A DNA stretch of 64,000 bases from a virus (IMGVR_UViG_3300033075_000927:14404-78403), one strand, 5' to 3'; shown: positions 9,238 to 58,899, counted from the first letter of the stretch. Notes: generated from the sequence alone by a model not told the origin. Translations and numbers: made by a program.

Positions 9238-12200
9238 TGAAAGTTCTAGTTGATGTAAGCAGTCTAATCAAGACCTGCCTGTACGCCGGAAAAGACCCAG
9301 AAGCGATTCTGGCGTCTGACGGCTCTCAAGTAAGCTCTGCGCGATGGGGTTACGACAACACGGTCAACTCCCTGGTGGCCACCTTGGACTACCTCAAATG
9401 TGTGCCATCCGACATCGTGTTTGCTGTGGAGGGGTTTCACAGCAAGTCCCGTCGCCAGCACATCGACAAGGGGTACAAGCAGGACGCGAAGCCGAAGGCT
9501 CCTGAGATGTTCGAGCAGTTCAATGAGGCCAAGGTCCTGGTGCTTGGGGCTTTCCGCAGGTTGGGCTCCATTCAGGTGACCCAGGACGGCGTGGAGGCTG
9601 ACGACATTATCGCCTGGTTCTGCACCCACACCAAAGAGGACACCGTCATCGTCTCGAATGACGGCGACCTGTGCCAGCTGCTGGGGCCCAATGCTCACGG
9701 CGCGAACATCGCCGTCTACCGGACGCACGGCGTGCAGCGCGAAAACCCTTACGGCGAGTTCTCGCCCAAGAACATCCTGGTCTACAAAGCCACGGTCGGG
9801 GATTCGTCCGACAAGATCAAGGGTGTGCCCGGCTTTGGCCCAGCCAAGTTCCAAGCCCTGCTGGAGCGCTTCGGTGACGACGGCCTGACTGAGCTGCGCC
9901 GCCTGGGCGACGAGGGCTCGCTGAGGGAGCTGTACGAGCAGGCCAGCACCGAGCCGCTGGTCCAACGCCTGGTGGACGGTGAGGAAAACTACCTGACCAG
10001 CTTCCGACTGGCCAAACTCTACCCGGAGTGGTGCAACACGCTGCACCAGCCGCTCGTGTGGACACCAGGCATGGTGGCGGGGTCTACTGAGGACCTGCGG
10101 CTGAAGAAGTGGGAATCCGCCCGCCGACTGGTCACAGCCGACAAGTGGGAGGCCTTCAAGCCTTGGGCTACTCGCAACATCGGTGGCTGGATGGCCCTGG
10201 ACATTGAAACCTCCACACCGGACGAGTCGGACGATTGGCTGGCCGCCCAAGATGACAGCAAGGGTGTGGACGTGATCGGCTCGAAGCTGTCTGGCATGTC
10301 GCTGACCTTCGGCCCCAACAAGCAGTACACCGTCTACATCCCGGTTGACCACGTTGACACAGACTGCGTGAAGTCGGAAGACCTGCGCGACTTCATCGCG
10401 TCGCTGCACGGCGTGACGAAGGTGATCCACAACACCCAGTTCGAGGGCACCGTCCTGTTCAACGAGTGGGGTGCCGAGTGGGCCGACAACGGGTTCCACG
10501 GCTACCTGCCCAATTGGCTGGACACCAAGTTCGAGGCCTCATATGTGGACGAGAACTTCTCACTGGGCCTGAAGAAACTGTCGAAGAGGTGGCTGGACTA
10601 CAACCAGGTGGACTACGACACGGTCACCACCCTCGAAGGTGAGCCAGGCTCTCTGAAGGGTGGGCGGCTGCTGGGCGAGTTCAAGAAGTGTGTCAAGGAG
10701 GCGGTGACGCGGGTGGCGACGCAGGAGGATGTGATCTGCGCCGACGAGTTTGGCCTCGACGAAGTACACCTTGGCGACACCATCGAAGTCAGCCCCGCCG
10801 AATTCGTGATGGTCGAACGCCGCCAGTACAAGATGCGCGAACTCAGCGCCCAGCACGTCTTCGACTACGCCTGCGACGACACGGTCACCACTGCAGCCCT
10901 GCACAATTTCTTCAAGCTGATCATGCAGCTTGAGGGAACTTGGCAGACCTATCTGGACGTGGAAATTTCCGCCTCCTACCTGCACACCCAGTCGTTTGTT
11001 CAAGGCGTTCCAATTGATTTGGCCAAGTTGCAAGAGTTGCGTGAGATTGACGACAAGACCTATGACGAGGCCTGGGCCAAGCTCTCCGCCTACCTGATGA
11101 CCAAGGGCTGGGATGGCTGCCTGCCGCCAGTCTACGACGGCGAGCCCACGCCGAAGCAGATCAAAGAGGCCTTCACCATCGTGACCGGCGAGGAGCTGGA
11201 GACGGCGGTACGCAAGCTCGACCGGCTGGCCGACGCCGTGGAAGCAGGCGGAAGCCTGGCGATGGCGGAGCTGATCCGCAACCGCGACTGGGAGTCGTTC
11301 AAGACCTTGGTGCTGCAGCACTTCGACGGCCAGCCGAAGTTCAATCCAGGCTCTCCGAAGCAGATGCAGCGCCTCTTCTACGAGGTCATGGGCCTGCCGG
11401 TGCGGGTGTTCAACGCCCCCACCGCCACCATGCGTGCTAAGGGCATCAAGCAGGGCACACCACAGACGAACGAGCTGGCCGTCAAGTATGCGATGCTTGA
11501 GGCTGGGCCGGAGGAAGCCGCTGCGCTGGAGGCAATCCGCCTGATGAAAATGGTGAGCACTAGGCGAGGCCTGTACTACGACACCTACCCGTACTTCGTA
11601 CACTGGAAGACTGGGCTGGTACACAGCTCACATAACCAATGTGCCACGAACACTAGACGAGCATCCTCCGCAAAGCCTAACGTACAGCAACTCGCTAAGC
11701 ACGAGAAGGTGAAAGGATTTGCGGCCAGGTTCCGCGAAGTAATCTCCCCGCACAAGAAGGGCGCTGTGGTGGTATCTATGGACTTCTCGTCCCAGGAGAT
11801 CCTGCTGCTGGCCGAATGGTCTCACGACCCTGTGCTGGAGCTTGCCTTCACTGGCGACCCACCGCTTGATATGCACAGCAAGACTGGGGTCGGTATCTGG
11901 AACCGCACCAATGAGCCGCTAACTTATGAGGAGTTTAAGACTATAGTTGATAACCAGTCGCACCCACTACACAAGAATATCAAGAAAGCGAGAGCTCTAG
12001 GTAAGACTGTGAACTTCGGAGCACTCTACCGTATGGCTGCTAAGAAGGCTGCCTCTGTGATGCTAGTTACTGAAGAAGAGGCGCAGGCGAGTTTGGACGC
12101 AAAAGCGGAGGCCTTCCCTGTGTCCGAGGCTTGGGCGCTGAGAGAGATGGAGATCGTCAAGGAGGCCGGGATCAGCAAGACCCTGCTCGGGGCGGTACGC

Positions 12201-12584: not shown

Positions 12585-12701
12585 TAAGATGGCAGCTTGA
12601 ATCTTGAACTCAGGCTGCTGCAACAGTATTAGTTCAGGGTTTACTCCCTGCGGGTTCGATTGGAGGTGTTGCAGCACCGACTTTCGAGCCCGTTTTCTTT
12701 T
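12582..12701 (+). ncRNA. structured leader RNA element A (C4/CI-like) with promoter and terminator
   Basis: TGATAAGAT extended -10; hairpin loop CTGCAA; hairpin CAGGG/CCCTG; stem CGGGTTCGA/TCGAGCCCG holding loop TTGCAG; U-tract; RBS. Confidence 0.55.
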
Positions 12702-12711
12702 GGAGATCGAA

Positions 12712-13314
12712 ATGCCAGATACAGCTGACACAGACGGAGCTAAACCAAAAACTGCCGGTGAAGCTGACACCTCAGAAGCAGGCATGCAGGCGTACATGCT
12801 CAAGCACTTCTACTTTTGCGAGGCTATTAAGGGGCTTCGTGTCAAGGAGAAAAGGCACTTCAACGGCAAGGAGGTCGGAGAGCCAGCCGGAAGTCCTACA
12901 CACTACGGATACCGACAGATAAATGTGTTCGGTAGACCGCACCTAGAGCACAGACTTGTATGGCTGATGTGTAAAGGGCACATGCCAACCCTAGAGCTGG
13001 ATCACGCTGATCAGGATAAGTTGAATAACCACATCTCCAACCTTAGAGAAGTGACACGGTCACAGAATAGCCAGAACAAGGGTAAGCAGAGTAACAATAA
13101 ATCCGGCAGAGTAGGGGTTCACAGGTCCGTAGACAGGTGCGGTAACGCATCCTGGATAGCCCAGATATGGGTAGACAATAAATATCGGAGCAAGACTTTC
13201 AGCTGTAATAAGTATGGCGAGGACAGTGCCAGGGATCAGGCCCTCTCTTGGAGAAGCCTGGCAGAACTCAACTTACACACTCACAGACCGACACAACCCA
13301 CGGAGCAGATATGA
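12712..13314 (+). CDS. free-standing HNH endonuclease (HNH_3 plus AP2-like tail)
   Basis: HRLVW...LELDHADQDKLNNHISNLR; start at ATG 12712 after GGAG. Confidence 0.85.
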   Translation: MPDTADTDGAKPKTAGEADTSEAGMQAYMLKHFYFCEAIKGLRVKEKRHFNGKEVGEPAGSPTHYGYRQINVFGRPHLEHRLVWLMCKGHMPTLELDHADQDKLNNHISNLREVTRSQNSQNKGKQSNNKSGRVGVHRSVDRCGNASWIAQIWVDNKYRSKTFSCNKYGEDSARDQALSWRSLAELNLHTHRPTQPTEQI

Positions 13315-14380: not shown

Positions 14381-15016
14381 ATGCAATCAGTAAAGTTAGT
14401 ATGGGCTACACCTGAAATTGACAGGCACCTGGCGTACATCGCCCGTGTGAGCAACCCTGAGAACCAGGAAAACGAAAACATCGTGGGACTTCTGCGCTAC
14501 ATGCTGCGCAACGGCCATGTCAGCCCGTTCGAGATGAGCCACATGTGCGTGGAGATCAACACCACACGAGACATTGGCCGACAAATTCTGCGCCACAGAT
14601 CGTTCTCGTTCCAGGAATTTAGTGGCCGCTACCAGTCCTATGACAAACTTCCGGCAGCCGAGTTTCGCGAGTGCCGACTGCAGGATGCCAAGAATCGGCA
14701 GAACAGTCTGCACACAGACGACGCTGAGCTTGCTGAGCAGTGGCACTGCCGCCAAGGTGTGCTGCTGGCAAAGGCTCAGCAGACCTACCAGTGGGCACTT
14801 GATCACGGCATCGCCAAGGAGCAGGCCCGCGCGGTGCTGCCGGAAGGCTTGACACCATCCCGCCTGTACATGGTGGGCAGCCTGCGCAGCTGGATTCACT
14901 ACCTGAAGTCCAGGCTCGACCCGTCCACGCAAAAAGAGCATCGCCTGATCGCCGCCGAGGTTCAGGCGATTCTCCGCGAGCTGGCTCCAGTGGCTGCGGA
15001 GGCTGCCGGTTTATGA
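14381..15016 (+). CDS. thyX: flavin-dependent thymidylate synthase
   Basis: GHVSPFE and ThyX motif QILRHRSFSFQEFSGRY; ARAVLP; QKEHR. Confidence 0.95.
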   Translation: MQSVKLVWATPEIDRHLAYIARVSNPENQENENIVGLLRYMLRNGHVSPFEMSHMCVEINTTRDIGRQILRHRSFSFQEFSGRYQSYDKLPAAEFRECRLQDAKNRQNSLHTDDAELAEQWHCRQGVLLAKAQQTYQWALDHGIAKEQARAVLPEGLTPSRLYMVGSLRSWIHYLKSRLDPSTQKEHRLIAAEVQAILRELAPVAAEAAGL

Positions 15017-15423
15017 GCACTTCAGCAAACCGTGGCAAGGAAGCGGAGACCCTTGTCAAAAAGCGGCTGGAGGTGTTGGCCAAGTCCTCCAACGTGGCCT
15101 GGCACCGCCCACCGGACATGCGCTCCGGCAGCTTCCAGCCAGCCCTCTGTGACTTCATCCTCTTGCAGGAAGGGCAGCTCACCTTGATCGAGGTGAAGCA
15201 GACTCAGCACGATTACCGCTTGCCGCACGGCAACCTCAGCACCGAACAAGTTGGTCGTATGCGGGTCTGGGAGATGGCAGGAGCTAGGTGCTATATCCTG
15301 GTTTACCACTCAGGTATTAAGCAGTGGCGCATGGAGGATGTGGGCTACTTCTCTGAACGTACAGGCGGCTCATGGGACTTGAGGCCACTGTCAACACGAA
15401 GACTTGAGGAGATATTGCTATGA
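15013..15423 (+). CDS. PD-(D/E)XK nuclease, RecU-like Holliday junction resolvase
   Basis: GKEAE...CDFI...IEVKQT...LSTEQ pattern. Confidence 0.75.
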   Translation: MSTSANRGKEAETLVKKRLEVLAKSSNVAWHRPPDMRSGSFQPALCDFILLQEGQLTLIEVKQTQHDYRLPHGNLSTEQVGRMRVWEMAGARCYILVYHSGIKQWRMEDVGYFSERTGGSWDLRPLSTRRLEEILL

Positions 15424-15474
15424 GTGAAGCGAGTAAAAAGGTCCCAGAGCTGCCGGTAAAATTGGGGAGGTACT

Positions 15475-16155
15475 ATGGGCAGTAAAATTTTAAGCGAAGC
15501 TGACGGAATTGGCCGGGTATTCCACAGGCTGACTGTACTAGGCTGGGCAGGTAAGACCAAACGAAACCACAGGCTCTGGAGGTGTGCTTGCTCCTGCGGA
15601 CGTGAGCACATAACCGAAATGTACCCACTCACAGCCGGACTTGTTAAGTCCTGCGGTTGCTATAAGGTTGACATGGCTGGTTCGCATTCTATAACCCACG
15701 GCGCTGCCTCAATCAAAAGTGACCCTGAAGCCCGCAGAGTTTACCGAGTGTGGACTGGTATACGAAAACGCTGCCTGAGTCCTAAATCCAAAGCATACGC
15801 AGACTATGGTGGTAGAGGGGTAACGCTATGCGACGAGTGGCTTGATTTCAGCAATTTTATCCGTGATATGGGCCCCAACTCTGAAGGTATGACAGTAGAG
15901 CGTATTGATGTGAATAAGGGCTATGAACCTGGAAACTGCAAGTGGTTGCCGCTCAGTAGACAGAATGAGAACAAGCGCAACACCTTACGAGTAACTTACA
16001 GCGGTAAAGAGTGGTGCTTGAAGCGTCTGTGCGAACATCTTGAGGTGCCATACGGCAGAACATTCAAAAGGTTACGCAGAATGTCCTTAGCGGAAGCCCT
16101 TGACCTGCCCGACACCTGTGAGATAAGCCTAGTTAACAGGGGTACACAATGCTAA
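15475..16155 (+). CDS. free-standing HNH endonuclease (Cys-rich N-terminus)
   Basis: RLTV...WRCACSCG...KSCGC; YGGRGVTLCDEW..F..DMG...TVERIDVNKGYEPGNCKW. Confidence 0.9.
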   Translation: MGSKILSEADGIGRVFHRLTVLGWAGKTKRNHRLWRCACSCGREHITEMYPLTAGLVKSCGCYKVDMAGSHSITHGAASIKSDPEARRVYRVWTGIRKRCLSPKSKAYADYGGRGVTLCDEWLDFSNFIRDMGPNSEGMTVERIDVNKGYEPGNCKWLPLSRQNENKRNTLRVTYSGKEWCLKRLCEHLEVPYGRTFKRLRRMSLAEALDLPDTCEISLVNRGTQC

Positions 16156-17147
16156 CTGTCCTAAACGACTGCCACCTTGGAACTGTACGTTCCGCTGGAA
16201 CGACACCAGTCACCCGACAAGCTCTAAGAGAGAGACTTCTAAGCAAGTTCAAGAACTTGCTCCCTGAGCAGGGAGACCTACTGATAGGGGGAGACCTTTT
16301 CGATGCCACCCACATTGCAGCCTCTGACCTGTTCGCGGTGTACGGAATCCTGACTCGTTGGCTGACTGCCAACCCTGACAGCTTCCTGTACAACAGCCGA
16401 GGAAACCACGACTGTGCGAGCTCAAGCAACGTGATGTCAAGCTTTGACCTGCTTGGTAAGCTGTTGACAATGCACTTTCCTAATCGGTACGTGCATATAG
16501 ATAAGCCGACAGCAACACCTCACGGCTATGTCATCCCGCATATGCCAAATCAGGTGCTGTTCGATGACGCGATTGCAGCTGTACCTGAATGTGATTTCCT
16601 GTTTGTGCATTGCAACATCAGCAACTGCTTCGCCGCACAGTCTGATCACAGCCTAAACCTCAGCTTAGAGCAGATCGCTGCGTGCAAGGCCAAGCAGATT
16701 GTCTGCGCTCACGAGCACCACGGAAGAACACTTGGTAAGGTTACCGTCACAGGCTTGCAGACACCTTCCAGTGTGTCAGACCTACTCAGCCCAGGAGACA
16801 AGCAGTATGCTGTGATCCGAGACGGCAAGCTCACCTTGCACACCTGCGCCCGCCGCGCCGACGAGTTTGCCGAGATGCCCTGGAACGACCTGAAGCCCAG
16901 CGCCGCGCCGTTCATCCGCATCAGCGGCGAGGCCACGGCAGCTCAGGCCTCTGAAGCCCTGGCCGCAGTCGCCGCCTACCGGCGCACGTCGGAAGCCCTG
17001 GTGGTGGCCAATGCCGTCAAGGTTCAGGCAGCTGAAGGTGCCGACTTCGAGGATGCAGTGGCAGACATGAAGGGGTATGATGTCATGTCCATGCTCCGGG
17101 AAGTCCTGGAGCCGAATGAAGTGAAAATTTTGGAGGGGTTGAAGTGA
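16149..17147 (+). CDS. metallophosphoesterase, SbcD/Mre11-like nuclease subunit
   Basis: NDCHLG, GGDLFD, GNHD, AHEH motifs; SbcC-like gene downstream. Confidence 0.85.
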   Translation: MLTVLNDCHLGTVRSAGTTPVTRQALRERLLSKFKNLLPEQGDLLIGGDLFDATHIAASDLFAVYGILTRWLTANPDSFLYNSRGNHDCASSSNVMSSFDLLGKLLTMHFPNRYVHIDKPTATPHGYVIPHMPNQVLFDDAIAAVPECDFLFVHCNISNCFAAQSDHSLNLSLEQIAACKAKQIVCAHEHHGRTLGKVTVTGLQTPSSVSDLLSPGDKQYAVIRDGKLTLHTCARRADEFAEMPWNDLKPSAAPFIRISGEATAAQASEALAAVAAYRRTSEALVVANAVKVQAAEGADFEDAVADMKGYDVMSMLREVLEPNEVKILEGLK

Positions 17148-17368
17148 AATTTTGCAAAGACTGTAAGCACCTGCGACTTTTGTATTGGTGCCAGCACCCA
17201 AAACTAGGCATCAACACCGTGACAGGTGGGCCACAGTCGGCGCGTGCCGACGAGATTCGCGGAACGCAAGGTCGCTGCGGAAGCGACTGGACTAGGTGCG
17301 GCCCAGAGGCTATCTGGTTCGAGCCCAATATGCGCAGTAGGTTTGTCACATGGCTCACTCAAAAGTGA
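17144..17368 (+). CDS. small Cys-rich protein
   Basis: CKDCKH...C...C..C pattern; GTGA overlap. Confidence 0.65.
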   Translation: MKFCKDCKHLRLLYWCQHPKLGINTVTGGPQSARADEIRGTQGRCGSDWTRCGPEAIWFEPNMRSRFVTWLTQK

Positions 17369-17571
17369 TAGCCTACTGCACCAACTGCCGGCACTACCAG
17401 CCTCCGGCAAAGTCACACGGGGCTGGCCAGTGTCTGGCAGTATCCTTGCCCGCCATCACCGCCAGGGCTCAGGCCTGCGGCACCTTCGGCCACCTGTTTG
17501 AGGCAGCTCCTTTGCACGCTGCGCACCCAAGGATGGTAAAAGGGCCAACAAAGAAGAGGAAATCACCGTGA
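17350..17571 (+). CDS. small Cys-rich protein
   Basis: CTNCRHY...C...C pattern. Confidence 0.6.
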   Translation: MAHSKVIAYCTNCRHYQPPAKSHGAGQCLAVSLPAITARAQACGTFGHLFEAAPLHAAHPRMVKGPTKKRKSP

Positions 17572-17696
17572 ACAGCGTATCGCCACACAGTTACTTCGCC
17601 TACCCGGAAGCCTTCGTACCTGGAGCTGCCATGCTCGTCAATGCAGCATTTGCCACTGTGGGCTGGGGCATCAGTGACCAGACGCTTGGCTTATGA
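17568..17696 (+). CDS. micro-ORF A1 (42 aa, MNSVSPHSYFAYPEAFV...ATVGWGIS)
   Basis: GTG start overlapping the upstream TGA, RBS aagagga; translated by hand; not in the ORF track. Confidence 0.55.
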   Translation: MNSVSPHSYFAYPEAFVPGAAMLVNAAFATVGWGISDQTLGL

Positions 17697-17836
17697 CACC
17701 GGCTACTGAGCCTGTTGAGCAGTGCAACTGCGCATCCTACTATCTGTCGTACCACCCAGACACGATTACGCTTGTGTTCAGAATCATCCGACCGGTTACC
17801 CGCATCAGACCCGCCAGAGAGCGACTACTACCATGA
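17693..17836 (+). CDS. micro-ORF A2 (47 aa, MTPATEP...FRIIRPVTRI)
   Basis: ATGA overlap at both ends; translated by hand. Confidence 0.55.
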   Translation: MTPATEPVEQCNCASYYLSYHPDTITLVFRIIRPVTRIRPARERLLP

Positions 17837-17967
17837 CACCTTCATTCGATACCTCCACACTTTACTGCCAAACAATAAAAACTACTGTGCATGGGTGGGT
17901 GTACGTTTCGCGTGAGTTCAGAGACGTAGGCCGTAACATCGTGCCGCTGATCGGACTTGTGCTGTGA
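17833..17967 (+). CDS. micro-ORF A3 (44 aa, MTPSFDT...)
   Basis: ATGA/GTGA overlaps; translated by hand. Confidence 0.55.
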   Translation: MTPSFDTSTLYCQTIKTTVHGWVYVSREFRDVGRNIVPLIGLVL

Positions 17968-18143
17968 CACCAGCCTACTCCGTAACTAGCCAGAGCTACA
18001 GCTCACACTACATACAGTATCCGCTAGATGGCTGCGACGCGCAGGCGCTGGTGTATGCAGGCATACGAGAAGTGTTCTTGAAATCACCATTAAGATGGAC
18101 TTTACTACAATGGCACCAGCCCACTTCAGCCTCGGCTGTTTAA
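17964..18143 (+). CDS. micro-ORF A4 (59 aa, MTPAYSV...)
   Basis: GTGA overlap; same TGACACC start as A2 and A3. Confidence 0.5.
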   Translation: MTPAYSVTSQSYSSHYIQYPLDGCDAQALVYAGIREVFLKSPLRWTLLQWHQPTSASAV

Positions 18144-18249
18144 CTAATCCGCACTGCTTCCCTTACTTCATAGTCAAGGCTAAGAGGGTAGTCTGGGCCG
18201 CGCTAGACAGCATCCGACACAACACACCAACCAAAAGCCGCCTACTCTG

Positions 18250-20253
18250 ATGATCAAAACCTTAACACTCACCAACTTCCGCAAGCACCGAGACCTGCAT
18301 ATCGACTTTGCCCAGGGTCTTACGGTTCTGGCCGGGGACAACGAGGCAGGCAAGTCCTCCGTGCTGGAGGCCCTGCTCTACGCTTGGGGCGGCAGCCGAG
18401 CGCTGCCGCGCTCGCTGGATGCCACAGTCACCTATGGCCAGCCCGTCAGCAGCCTGAAGGTGCAGCTGACCTTCGAGGTTGGCGGCGTGCTGTACACCCT
18501 CACCCGCTCCAAGGCCGGCGCTGAGATGATGGGCGGCGGGGCACTATCGGTCGGCCAGACGGAGGTGACAGCGGCTGTCGAGCGGCTGCTGGGTGCCCCG
18601 GTGGCCACGCTGAGCCGGCTGCTGGTGGCCAGGCAAACTGACCTGAAGGGTGTGGCCGCCGAGGGCGCTGCAGCCGTCAAGCTGATCGAAGAGCTTGCCG
18701 AACTCGGCGCCATCGAAGACTTGGTCGAAAAGGTGCAGGCCCAGTTGCCATACGGCTCTACGAAGGCGGCGCTCGAAAAGCTCGAAGCTCTGCGCCAAGA
18801 ACGCGCCCCGGAGCTGCCCGACTTCTCGCCTGAGCTGAAGCAGGCCGAGCTGGAAGCTGCGCTGGCGGCAGCCGAGGCCAGCGAGGGGGCGGAACTTGAG
18901 CGCGAGGCGCTGGCCGAGTTGCTGGATGCCCAGGCGGCTGACATGGCACACCAGGCAGCCAAGTCTGAGCAGGCGCGGCTGCAAGCCATTCTGGCCCTGC
19001 CGCAGACCAAGCCCCTGGATCACTCTGCCACTCCTGTCGAGCAGATCATCGCTGCGCGGACGGAGCAGGCTCGGCAGGTAGAGCTGCGCAACGCTTGGGC
19101 GGCGTGGACCAACTTGGCCGTGGTCCCTGACCCAGGCCCGATGCCAGTAGTTGACCACGGCGCACCGGAAAAGCTGCAGGCGCAGCTGCGAAACCTTGGG
19201 TACTCACGCCCACAGATAGAGAGCCATTGCGAACATTGCGGCAGCCCGTTGGAACCGCCTACAGCTGAAATACTGGCCAGAGTGGCCGGAATTGACGCTG
19301 AGATGGCTAAGCTGCGAGCAGAGCACCAAGCAGCAGTGGCCGCAAGAGCTGAAGCCGTGGCTGCCCAGACTGCCTGGTGCTCTGCACAGGAGAACTGGAA
19401 AACCTACCTGCACAAGCTTTCGCTGCTCAGTCGCTACGTGCAGGACGGAGCCTGGGTCGGCGGCCCAGTCTCGTCAGAAGTGGACACCACCAACTACGAC
19501 GTGATGCTGAACAACGAGCTGCGCAAGCAGCGCGAGGCTGCTCAGATCGAAGAGCGCATCAAGCTGGAGTCGGTGCAGCGGGCCCAGGCCGAGAAAGATT
19601 TGGCACGGCTGGTTGTGCCCCCAGCCGTCACCGACCTGGACAACCTGTCGAAGCACGCGGCGCTGCGCAGCAGCCAGGCGCGAACCTTGGCCAAGGTCGC
19701 GCAGTCGGCTGCGGACGGGCTGCGAGCCAAGCAGGCGGCAGCCAGAGACCTGGAGACCCAGTACAAAGTACAGATGGCCACCTACCAAGCCGGGCAGGCG
19801 CAGTTGGCCGAACTGACGCGCACCGTCAGCGAGATGGACACGAACAATGCCCTGATCAAGAAGTTGCGCCAGGCCCGCCCCGTGCTGGCGGCGAAGTTGT
19901 GGGCCGGCCTGCTGGCGGCCATCAGCCGCACGTTCAGCGAGCTGCGCGGTGTGCCTTCGGTGGTGGGCCGGTCTGCCGATGGGTTCGAGGTGGACGGCAA
20001 GCCTGCCTCCGACCTGAGCGGATCGACACTTGACATCTTGGGACTTGCCGTTCGCATCAGCCTGATGCGAGCATTTCTGCCTGGTGTCGGCCTGCTGATT
20101 CTGGATGAGCCGGCTGCGGCTATGGATGCAGCCCGCGAGGAGCGGCTGCTGGCAGCACTTGCCACACTCGACTTCGGCCAGGTCTTGATGGTTTCACACG
20201 GCGACACTGCGAAAGCTGTTGCCGGTAGCGTAATTTTGTTACAAGGAGTCTGA
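18250..20253 (+). CDS. SbcC/Rad50-like SMC ATPase
   Basis: Walker A GDNEAGKSS, coiled coil with HCEHCG zinc hook, signature LSGST, Walker B LILDEP, H-loop VSH. Confidence 0.92.
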   Translation: MIKTLTLTNFRKHRDLHIDFAQGLTVLAGDNEAGKSSVLEALLYAWGGSRALPRSLDATVTYGQPVSSLKVQLTFEVGGVLYTLTRSKAGAEMMGGGALSVGQTEVTAAVERLLGAPVATLSRLLVARQTDLKGVAAEGAAAVKLIEELAELGAIEDLVEKVQAQLPYGSTKAALEKLEALRQERAPELPDFSPELKQAELEAALAAAEASEGAELEREALAELLDAQAADMAHQAAKSEQARLQAILALPQTKPLDHSATPVEQIIAARTEQARQVELRNAWAAWTNLAVVPDPGPMPVVDHGAPEKLQAQLRNLGYSRPQIESHCEHCGSPLEPPTAEILARVAGIDAEMAKLRAEHQAAVAARAEAVAAQTAWCSAQENWKTYLHKLSLLSRYVQDGAWVGGPVSSEVDTTNYDVMLNNELRKQREAAQIEERIKLESVQRAQAEKDLARLVVPPAVTDLDNLSKHAALRSSQARTLAKVAQSAADGLRAKQAAARDLETQYKVQMATYQAGQAQLAELTRTVSEMDTNNALIKKLRQARPVLAAKLWAGLLAAISRTFSELRGVPSVVGRSADGFEVDGKPASDLSGSTLDILGLAVRISLMRAFLPGVGLLILDEPAAAMDAAREERLLAALATLDFGQVLMVSHGDTAKAVAGSVILLQGV

Positions 20254-55689: not shown

Positions 55690-56400
55690 CATGTAACTCA
55701 AGTTACCAAGTGCGCAAACGCCGGATTCTCCAAACCCCGCAAGCTCCGCAAGCCCCCTTTTCGATAGCAAAAGTTGCAGAAAACCTGTAATTTTTGTACC
55801 GACGGGTCGAAATGCGCGTAACTTTGTTACCAAATCGGTAACTTTCGCGCTTCAAGCCCCGTTTTGCGGGTTTTGCGGGGTTTCAAGAGTTATTTGCAGA
55901 CTTGAGTCGGGCTCAAGCGGGTTGCAAGCCTTTAGCAGCTCTTTGCAAGCCCTACACAGCCTTGCAAGCCTTTCTTACCTAATTCGCAGGCACCTCAAGC
56001 TTTGCTAGGCGCTTAAAAAATTTTTTACCGCCTAGTAGCAAAAATTATCCAAATTTAGCTAAAAATTTTGGAAATTTTTAGAGAAAAATACTAATTTACG
56101 ACTACTAAAACATGTATTTATATTTATATTTATATTATATATTTATATTTTTTTATTGTATTTTATTGTATTGCTTGTATTTTTACCCAGTTAATTCCTA
56201 TAACTGAAGTAGTCCGACTTTATGGGGAAAAAACGTTTTTTAAAAAATAAAAAAACGAAAAACATTTTTTCTGGCAAACGTGCCCCCCTTTTTGCTCCTG
56301 AACGAACAGGGTAAAAATACATGCAATACAACAAAATACTGTATTTTTTTGTGCAAAAGTACCAAAATACAAAATACACAAAATACTTTTTCAAGCTTTA
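55690..56400. other. putative replication origin (iteron-like repeats plus AT-rich tract with inverted arms)
   Basis: TTGCAAGCC x3 (55922, 55943, 55962); CCGCAA/TTGCGG pairs; very AT-rich 56020-56400; 23-bp IR 56166-56188/56309-56331. Confidence 0.55.
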
Positions 56401-57773: not shown

Positions 57774-58097
57774 ATGTTGCGGATTCAAGTGAGGTTCCCT
57801 GACGAGAACCCTGACACCCCACCCACCTTCCCCCAAACCCCGAAAGGGCTGATCGAGCTTGCGAAGGCCTTGCCAGCAGTCCGGGCCCAGGCCAAGGCAA
57901 AGAGCATAGAATCAGAGGTGTGGGTGGAGACATCTACGGGCAGACGAATCCCGCAGGAAGACCTTGACTACGTGTTGCACGTAGAACATCAAGAACGCTC
58001 CACCCAGCGCCTACGACGACCAGATCAGCGAAGGGTGCAGCGAGGCCAAGGCCCCCTGAAACGGGCTGCTGAAGTTCTGAAGGGGCTTGAGGTATGA
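57774..58097 (+). CDS. hypothetical protein
   Basis: RBS ggagga. Confidence 0.7.
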   Translation: MLRIQVRFPDENPDTPPTFPQTPKGLIELAKALPAVRAQAKAKSIESEVWVETSTGRRIPQEDLDYVLHVEHQERSTQRLRRPDQRRVQRGQGPLKRAAEVLKGLEV

Positions 58098-58237
58098 CTC
58101 CAGTGTCTATCCTCAGCCGTGGGCCTGAGCTGTTCGTGTATACGTCCAAGAGCTCAGAGGCCTTGCTCGTGTCATACACGATACTCTGGCCAGTTACTTT
58201 CGTCGTAGATCGGATGCAGTATGACGGAAACGCCTGA
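58094..58237 (+). CDS. micro-ORF B1 (47 aa, MTPVSILSRGPELFV...YTILWPVT)
   Basis: ATGA overlap; translated by hand. Confidence 0.65.
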   Translation: MTPVSILSRGPELFVYTSKSSEALLVSYTILWPVTFVVDRMQYDGNA

Positions 58238-58355
58238 GTTCTCAGAATGTCCTGAGCTGTTCATCAGGGAAGATTGCAACAGCCTAACCGCATCGGAAGT
58301 AGCCAACGAACTGATGTGGCCGCTGTCGTGGCTTGTGGATCAGATGCGACCATGA
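58221..58355 (+). CDS. micro-ORF B2 (44 aa, MTETPEFSECPELFI...ANELMWPLS)
   Basis: Shares CCTGAGCTGTTC with B1; ends in an ATGA overlap. Confidence 0.65.
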   Translation: MTETPEFSECPELFIREDCNSLTASEVANELMWPLSWLVDQMRP

Positions 58356-58516
58356 CCCACTTCTACCTACCTTCGCCGGACTACCTGTTCCGTGGCCGTT
58401 ATAGGTATAGGTATAGCTCTGCCTACACTGACGTGGACTGGAACGTCAAGTGGCCGATAACAAAGCTAGTCATCAACATGGAGCACCCAGCATGGTGGAA
58501 CCGCCCCTCAACTTGA
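58352..58516 (+). CDS. micro-ORF B3 (54 aa, MTHFYLPSPDYLFRG...NVKWPIT)
   Basis: ATGA overlap; C-terminal part of track ORF 58274..58516. Confidence 0.65.
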   Translation: MTHFYLPSPDYLFRGRYRYRYSSAYTDVDWNVKWPITKLVINMEHPAWWNRPST

Positions 58517-58622
58517 GTGCCCTGAATACTTCATTCGCGGTCAGGTTGGCTACGTGTATTCGGTGGTCGCAAATGCGATCCTGTGGCCGCTGTCCGAGCT
58601 TACAGCAAAGGTAAAGGAATGA
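58492..58622 (+). pseudogene. micro-ORF B4, apparently frameshifted (…LECPEYFIRG...ANAILWPLS)
   Basis: The homologous frame has no ATG; ATG 58492 (RBS ggag) is one frame off across a GCCCC run. Confidence 0.5.
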
Positions 58623-58744
58623 CCGAGGTAAAGTTGCTATTCGATGCTGACAGCCTCGTGAGGCCTTGGGTTCGACGCGTAGTAGATGTAGCCATCAGCT
58701 TAATGTGGCAGATACCCTACGCAGAAGGCGACCACCTGATATGA
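58619..58744 (+). CDS. micro-ORF B5 (41 aa, MTEVKLL...DVAISLMWQIP)
   Basis: RBS aagga; ATGA overlaps. Confidence 0.65.
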   Translation: MTEVKLLFDADSLVRPWVRRVVDVAISLMWQIPYAEGDHLI

Positions 58745-58899
58745 CACCTTGCAGAATACCCACCTTCTACTGCCCAGACGGCAGTAGAGACTTAGTAAAT
58801 TGGGTCAGGTTGGCACTACCAGAGAACGGCGTGCCGTCCTTGGTAGCTATTAACGTCGTGTGGGGCATCCCAAGGCCCACAGTGGAGTGTGAAATATGA
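58741..58899 (+). CDS. micro-ORF B6 (52 aa, MTPCRIP...LVAINVVWGIP)
   Basis: ATGACACC start; ATGA overlaps. Confidence 0.65.
   Translation: MTPCRIPTFYCPDGSRDLVNWVRLALPENGVPSLVAINVVWGIPRPTVECEI

Follow-up and report, generated by a model that had tools for sequence, protein, structure and literature searches.

Seven chained small genes between the sbcD- and sbcC-like genes of an uncultured tailed phage, with a recurring 8-base stop/start overlap as their putative preferred exchange point

Phage 'dark matter' consists mostly of tiny, fast-evolving genes. To our knowledge, the gain and loss of tiny phage genes is known in detail only for the promoter–terminator cassettes of T4-type phages. These PeSL (promoter-early stem-loop) cassettes are described from the hyperplastic regions of T4-type genomes (Arbiol et al. 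2010, PMC2839356; Comeau et al. 2014, PMC4122927), in which small ORFans are bordered by a short repeated element, at which indels and replacements between closely related phages begin and end. Occasionally, PeSL elements occur at exceptionally plastic loci within conserved replication modules. The element itself is intergenic, consists of a sigma-70 promoter and a terminator stem-loop, and acts on transcription. Small ORFs are also found between the SbcD-like and SbcC-like genes of T4, where hypothetical ORFs of 87 and 68 aa stand in the order 47–46.2–46.1–46 (AF158101.6) and are chained by 4-nt overlaps. Overlaps of the ATGA type couple translation by termination–reinitiation (Huber et al. 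2019, PMC6728339), and a passage in PMC9031893, citing Martin-Farmer and Janssen 1999, states that CA repeats after the start codon enhance translation. Here, we compare with these systems an array of small genes in which stop and start codons overlap in a recurring 8-base sequence, RTGACACC (hereafter, the joint).

The array belongs to an uncultured tailed phage represented by a 78,403-bp IMG/VR virus contig. The window, i.e., the whole stretch of 64,000 nucleotides that was analysed, corresponds to contig bases 14404–78403, and positions refer to the window unless a contig position is given. Pfam and PHROG annotation placed the array within a replication and recombination module on the + strand (Table 1). 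A metallophosphoesterase gene is followed on the same strand by an SMC-like ATPase gene, as in SbcCD and gp47–gp46 nuclease operons, and this sbcD–sbcC synteny was kept in 31 distant and 11 close relatives. The SbcD-like gene had 421 homologs and a dN/dS of 0.10–0.15. A blastn comparison of the region with 50,697 phage records matched nothing, and a search of viral contigs for related loci with SbcC only found none. The close relatives are 11 metagenome contigs (L148–L158) that a scan with SbcD recovered at SbcD amino acid identities of 85%–100%, and they represent approximately seven independent lineages.

Table 1. Position and characteristics of the genes and joints at the sbcD–sbcC locus and of the module around it.
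Feature	Position	Strand	Remarks
SNF2-type helicase, primase-like protein, family A polymerase, HNH endonuclease, ligase		+	Start of the module, in this order
ThyX-type reading frame		+	After the ligase; putative assignment
Resolvase-like protein	15013–15423	+	Followed by a second HNH-like ORF
SbcD/Mre11-like nuclease gene	16149–17147	+	332 aa; left anchor; Pfam Metallophos E 3e-6; PHROG 100 'SbcD-like'
o74	17144–17368	+	Cys-rich (CxxC...C...C) small gene with basic tail; GTGA-coupled to the sbcD stop
o73	17350–17571	+	Cys-rich (CxxC) small gene with basic KKRK tail; 91%–94% aa identity in all relatives
A1	17568–17696	+	42 aa; GTG start; own Shine–Dalgarno (AAGAGGAAA); GTGA overlap with o73
A2	17693–17836	+	47 aa; joint ATGACACC; member of the A2/A4/A4'/A5 paralog family
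Joint 1	17693–17700	+	ATGACACC; A1 stop/A2 start; end of the A2+A3 indel and L152/L156 crossover site
A3	17833–17967	+	44 aa; joint ATGACACC; singleton
Joint 2	17833–17840	+	ATGACACC; A2 stop/A3 start
A4	17964–18143	+	59 aa; GTG; joint GTGACACC; 49 aa in relatives
Joint 3	17964–17971	+	GTGACACC; A3 stop/A4 start; other end of the A2+A3 indel
A5	18110–18250	+	46 aa; joint decayed to ATGGCACC; stop overlaps the sbcC start (TGATG)
SbcC/Rad50-like ATPase gene	18250–20253	+	667 aa; right anchor; Pfam AAA_23, SMC_N; PHROG 77 'SbcC-like' E 2e-28

The interval between the two nuclease genes (17144–18250) is occupied by seven chained accessory small genes, namely o74, o73 and A1–A5. The initial annotation had recorded four ORFs of 42, 47, 44 and 59 aa between the SbcD-like and SbcC-like genes; all four exist at the claimed places, but the count was too low, with A5 and the o74/o73 pair having been missed. 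The most conserved member of the interval was o73 (dN/dS 0.08–0.23), and o74 occurred in the close relatives as three divergent alleles, with nucleotide identities of 49%–63% between groups and up to 99% within them. A1 has a hydrophobic core (maximum 17-aa hydropathy, 1.68), and its start is spelled GTGAACAG, not RTGACACC. In the relatives, the shorter A4 stops within an ATGAC(G/A)CC joint, at which A5 begins, the A5 spelling being ATGACGCC or ATGACACC. In the window, the A4/A5 joint has lost its TGA, and A4 thus extends 10 codons over the A5 start.

All junctions from sbcD to sbcC overlap. RTGA or TGATG overlaps were found at six of them, including the 4-nt RTGA overlaps that chain A1–A4; the overlaps of o74 with o73 (19 nt) and at the decayed junction of A4 with A5 are longer. 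The stop/start overlaps expected of termination–reinitiation pairs (ATGA, GTGA, TGATG) are therefore present at the locus. At the sequence level, the array resembles such coupled pairs in having an overlap at every junction and no strong Shine–Dalgarno sequences upstream of A2–A5. It differs from ordinary overlapping pairs in that the four bases past the overlap are fixed genome-wide too (ACACC). The promoter scan found no promoter-like site between 17147 and 18250, and no terminator-like site was found on the + strand of the interval. Given that the interval also had no Rfam family and no stable local RNA fold (z-scores around the joints, −0.8 to +0.9), the seven small genes are probably co-transcribed with the nuclease genes on one transcript.

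Substitution patterns among the close relatives indicate that the A ORFs are real, fast-evolving genes under frame-specific purifying selection. In five genome pairs, the pooled pN/pS of A1–A5 was 0.32–0.52 in the claimed frame (binomial p 4e-8 to 5e-4), compared with 0.84–1.32 in the two shifted frames; the latter contained many stops, whereas the claimed frame contained none in any relative. Among informative pairs, A1 had a dN/dS of ca. 0.10–0.15, constrained like SbcD, and A2–A5 were looser at ca. 0.2–0.5 (A5: 0.16–0.37). The synonymous divergence of the A genes equalled that of the flanks, and indels were in frame, e.g., a 33-nt duplication in A1. None of the exact sequences of the seven small ORFs was present in a collection of 15 billion proteins, and neither Pfam nor PHROGs held a family for any of the seven proteins, as might be expected of ORFs that had arisen fortuitously in non-coding spacer DNA or in an RNA element. 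However, the excess of synonymous change is specific to the frame, the ORFs stay open at the same lengths in relatives at 57%–88% amino acid identity, and the interval has neither an Rfam match nor a stable fold; we regard chance ORFs as barely credible. The same protein collection does hold the SbcC of this contig and the 55-aa ORF after it; gene calling on this contig thus overlooked the entire chain or gave it wrong starts. Orthologs from other data sets are present as called genes (P0151–P0156).

The initial annotation had also assigned the A ORFs to the family of a second array (array B, 58094–58899), of which they would be diverged members seeded at another locus. The two arrays do share the start motif, with TGACACC at 58742 and B1 starting ATGACTCC at 58094, and thus an MT(P) N-terminus. 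A1 can be aligned through YFAYPEAFVPG with the 'PELF' of a 6-sequence B alignment (hhalign P = 0.008, 16 columns; P = 0.022 with a larger B profile), and the best non-self match of the A2/A4/A5 profile is B6 (E = 0.084). However, the A peptides did not rise above background against B profiles: A1–A4 ranked 33, 149, 159 and 644 among 1503 six-frame genome segments searched with a B1–B6 profile (E 11–180), whereas left-out B members were recovered at rank 6–8 of the same number. With a 37-sequence B profile, which includes the P-E-[LY]-F and conserved Trp columns, the hhalign probability was 2.2% for A1 (11 columns, in the YPEAF/PELF region), 0.8% for A3 and, with the four residues MTPA only, 2.6% for the A2/A4/A5 family. 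The motif echoes of array B that had been read into A1 and A2 did not hold: the A1 Trp, which seemed to correspond to the best-conserved B residue, is Leu or Cys in the A1 orthologs of relatives. What A and B have in common is only the joint-encoded Met-Thr(-Pro). A failure of the A peptides to score against a B-derived profile is the outcome that the initial annotation had itself named as refuting, and the family assignment, highly improbable in our judgement, is close to refuted at the sequence level. A common joint does not imply common protein ancestry. Within array B, B4 (58515–58619) carries the B-family motif and has no in-frame ATG, GTG or TTG start in the window; the version of a relative (P0163) is intact and starts MTEPLPQLECPEYF, and the window copy has probably lost its start.

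Paralogy was found within array A itself. A2, A4, A5 and A4', an extra cassette present in L149, L151 and L154, align over their full length (46–49 residues; consensus MTPAY..Q....HY..Y......V..[IL]R.V...P.R.LL), with hhalign probabilities of 97% for A4–A4', 90% for A2–A4' and 92% for A4'–A5. No paralog of A1 or A3 was detected anywhere in the genome. Searched against 1.84 billion representative proteins, the A2/A4/A5 profile returned seven matches, all from this clade, and an ESM Atlas search with A5 gave no usable match. AlphaFold2 run on the 15-sequence family alignment yielded an unusable prediction (pLDDT 54). One further candidate, a micro-ORF at contig position 10237, resembled A4 (E 0.0045) over its first ca. 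14 residues only; the similarity vanished without the N-terminal columns, and the micro-ORF was therefore not counted as a paralog.

The joint itself recurs well beyond the interval. TGACACC is present, as claimed, at 17694, 17834 and 17965, and its 19 occurrences in the window compare with 9.8 ± 3.3 in shuffled sequence. Over the whole contig, the + strand carried 33 of the 35 [AGT]TGACACC sites found and the − strand two. An ORF of 31–60 codons that overlaps the upstream stop begins at nearly every RTGACACC site; these micro-genes lie mostly in the first 14 kb of the contig, upstream of the window. Among the 106 small RTGA joints, 29 encoded Met-Thr-Pro, and the dipeptide ranking second was found at six. 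In 25 of these 29 starts, Thr was ACA, compared with an ACA share of 19.5% among Thr codons of large genes, and the third base of the Pro codon was free. The conserved unit is therefore a nucleotide string, silent third base of the Thr codon included, and not the peptide alone; between relatives, this silent base does vary (ACA/ACG). A1–A4 are, like the other micro-genes, + strand ORFs of 31–60 codons with a 4-nt overlap, as is A5 in relatives, and A2, A3 and A4 also have the RTGACACC spelling. Array A is an outpost of this genome-wide RTGACACC micro-gene set inside the replication module. The initial annotation had further suggested that members of its proposed family would fall in both early and middle transcription units; what is seen for array A is its location within the replication and recombination module. 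A search of viral contigs for the pattern TGACACC-N-RTGACACC-N-RTGACACC returned 115 stretches, which were chance or unrelated repeats and included no relative and no joint-type ORFs. At contig positions 12684–12735 (L159), three tandem 17-nt units, each beginning ATGACACC, form two 6-codon ORFs before a 46-aa gene; these units represent joint-plus-head slippage.

The initial annotation had proposed that the junction motif acts as a micro-homology for gain, loss or shuffling of cassette-like genes. Comparison of the close relatives confirmed that the interval is not fixed and that one indel ends at TGACACC. This indel comprises the A2+A3 block (271 nt, 17693–17963 give or take the repeat), which is present in the window, L149/L150/L151 and L153/L158 and absent from L148 and L152/L156 (three contigs, two lineages), and both ends of the gap lie inside the repeated RTGACACC motif. 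Each cassette of the interval has its own tree, and a natural crossover could be placed at Joint 1. L152/L156 are 99%–100% identical to L149 over the stretch that begins at the end of o73, includes A1 and stops at the joint; past the joint, they are 52%–76% identical to L149 and 82%–88% to L148. Informative sites were L149-like at 34 of 41 positions up to 17691 and L148-like at 68 of 97 after 17972, and this switch of nearest relative (Fisher p 8e-9) falls within about 3 nt of the joint. Because the gene to the right of the joint is A2 in one parent and A4 in the other, the joint is the only sequence common to both at the exchange point. The A4' cassette of L149/L151/L154 also has its left end at a joint, with its right end inside A5, and a 14-nt stretch immediately 5' of the A4/A5 joint is tandemly duplicated in L148. 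P0156, from a relative, is one 90-aa ORF in which A2 runs into A3 (…TREAIC-MTPSFDT…), indicating that nature tolerates a change of frame close to the joint.

The proposed role in gain, loss and exchange therefore held for the A2+A3 indel and the crossover, whereas other indels and allele swaps of the interval did not use TGACACC. The three o74 alleles were swapped between conserved flanks without TGACACC, a 68-aa ORF was inserted after sbcD in L153/L158, and the 33-nt duplication in A1 also did not use the joint. In L154, a low-coverage contig, one deletion joined the CxxC-coding heads of o74 and o73 into an o74/o73 hybrid, and a second, at a 3-nt match, destroyed o73, A1–A3 and half of A4. 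The joint thus appears from these alignments to be a preferred, not an exclusive, exchange point, and some of this preference may be due to selection that keeps coupled genes intact. Given that approximately seven independent lineages were compared, the number of independent events is small.

Variation was also seen on either side of the interval. The gene border between the resolvase-like gene and sbcD (15423–16149) is a further variable slot, without an RTGACACC joint: it is occupied by a 226-aa HNH-like ORF in the window, by two unrelated ORFs (131 and 72 aa) in L148/L149, and by the 72-aa ORF alone in L152. In the middle of sbcC (19157–19456), L149 has 48%–62% nucleotide identity to the other close relatives, with flanks of 85%–100%, representing an allele replacement inside a probable coiled-coil region. 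Farther along the window, an AT-rich, low-complexity stretch (56100–56400) lies just upstream of the + strand block with array B and may be a regulatory or origin-like region.

Considering these observations together, we favour, with a probability of roughly 60%, the reading that the joint serves both as a restart signal and as a short homology for the deletion, duplication and swap of whole genes. As the same 8 bases stand at many gene borders, we infer that the joint also offers a short homology for recombination. Slippage or short-homology recombination at these recurring bases would delete, duplicate or swap whole genes, and swaps at the joint would keep every frame and the coupling to sbcC intact. 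On the translational side, the UGA/AUG overlap would let a terminating ribosome restart without a Shine–Dalgarno sequence (cf. PMC6728339), and the CA-rich bases after the AUG could perhaps help the restart, in line with the passage in PMC9031893. Against a dual role stands the decay of the window's own A4/A5 joint; moreover, selection for intact coupled genes alone would enrich surviving breakpoints at gene borders. The interval contains 54 repeated 7-mer pairs, of which the joint supplies 3. Homologous recombination usually needs far more than 8 bases.

The joint could instead be a translation signal only, with RTGACACC kept for efficient restart or for a favoured Met-Thr-Pro N-terminus. The rearrangements would then stem from ordinary recombination in the flanks or from random illegitimate events, among which only those ending at gene borders survive. 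The literature on ATGA coupling (PMC6728339) and the passage on CA-rich enhancement (PMC9031893) are consistent with such a signal, as are the joint-free rearrangements described above, namely those in the same interval, including the o74 alleles exchanged between conserved flanks, and those in the resolvase–sbcD slot. The inserts that distant relatives carry between sbcD and sbcC likewise lack RTGACACC joints. However, this explanation does not readily account for the L152/L156 crossover (17691–17972), where the joint is all that the parents share at the exchange point, or for the tandem duplications that abut joints (L148; 17-nt repeats at contig 12684–12718). We therefore treat a purely translational role as the main rival, though a less likely one, and retain the combined role in restart and exchange as the working interpretation.

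The distant relatives clarify how unusual the interval is. The claim that sbcD and sbcC are normally adjacent was borne out by 31 relatives with SbcD identities of 36%–53%, in which the two genes mostly abut (gap 0–15 nt) and from which the RTGACACC joint is absent. A few of the 31 carry unrelated single inserts (HNH endonuclease, methyltransferase-like gene, small ORFs); the sbcD|sbcC border is a recurrent insertion site. The arrangement of T4 46.2/46.1 shows that splitting the subunit genes with small coupled ORFs is not new, and the gene order and the chaining by 4-nt overlaps are the same. T4 differs in having two ORFs, compared with seven here, and no common joint motif, and gp46.1 and gp46.2 had no sequence similarity to any small ORF of the present array.

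The position between the subunit genes might also be explained if the small proteins were dedicated partners or regulators of the SbcCD-type nuclease and not generic cassettes. The retention of o73, A1 and A5 in nearly all close relatives would fit such a function, as would the constant stop/start coupling of A5 to sbcC and the chaining of the T4 ORFs between genes 47 and 46. Nevertheless, the sbcD and sbcC genes of most distant relatives abut or are separated by unrelated inserts, A2 and A3 are dispensable in nature, the T4 proteins are dissimilar, and the paralog family is confined to this clade, which makes dedicated partners unlikely. The small proteins would most likely be individually dispensable accessory micro-proteins with host-interaction or nuclease-modulating roles.

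Among described systems, the PeSL cassettes of T4-type phages are the closest: the outcome is the same, and the element and the level at which it operates are different. Neither a sigma-70-like early promoter nor a stable stem-loop was found at the locus, whereas the joint does mark indel and replacement ends, as seen for the A2+A3 block and the L152/L156 crossover. Unlike the intergenic PeSL element, the joint is 8 bases inside overlapping coding sequence (stop, start and two codons) and would act on translation. Integron cassettes, recombined at attC and attI, form another set of arrays of small, individually dispensable, promoter-less genes that come and go as units at a recurring boundary element. 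Only this outcome is alike; unlike in integrons, the boundary here is 8 nt inside coding sequence, and neither an integrase nor an attC-like folded site was found. A stronger proposal, that RTGACACC is a dedicated dual cis-element for ribosome restart and for the programmed capture, loss and reshuffling of promoter-less micro-genes, on which the phage's neighbouring SbcCD-like nuclease, resolvase-like protein and HNH endonucleases might act, appears very doubtful. If true, it would represent a translation-level analogue of the integron across the early and replication regions.

The locus provides a clean, small comparative example within an otherwise conserved recombination-nuclease operon. 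What it contributes is the base-level mapping of a two-gene indel and a natural crossover at an 8-base stop/start overlap, together with a clear negative on protein ancestry common to array B. If the joint truly promotes exchange, gene shuffling could be organised at the level of translation signals, and the joint would offer annotators a simple rule for the micro-genes that gene callers missed on this contig.
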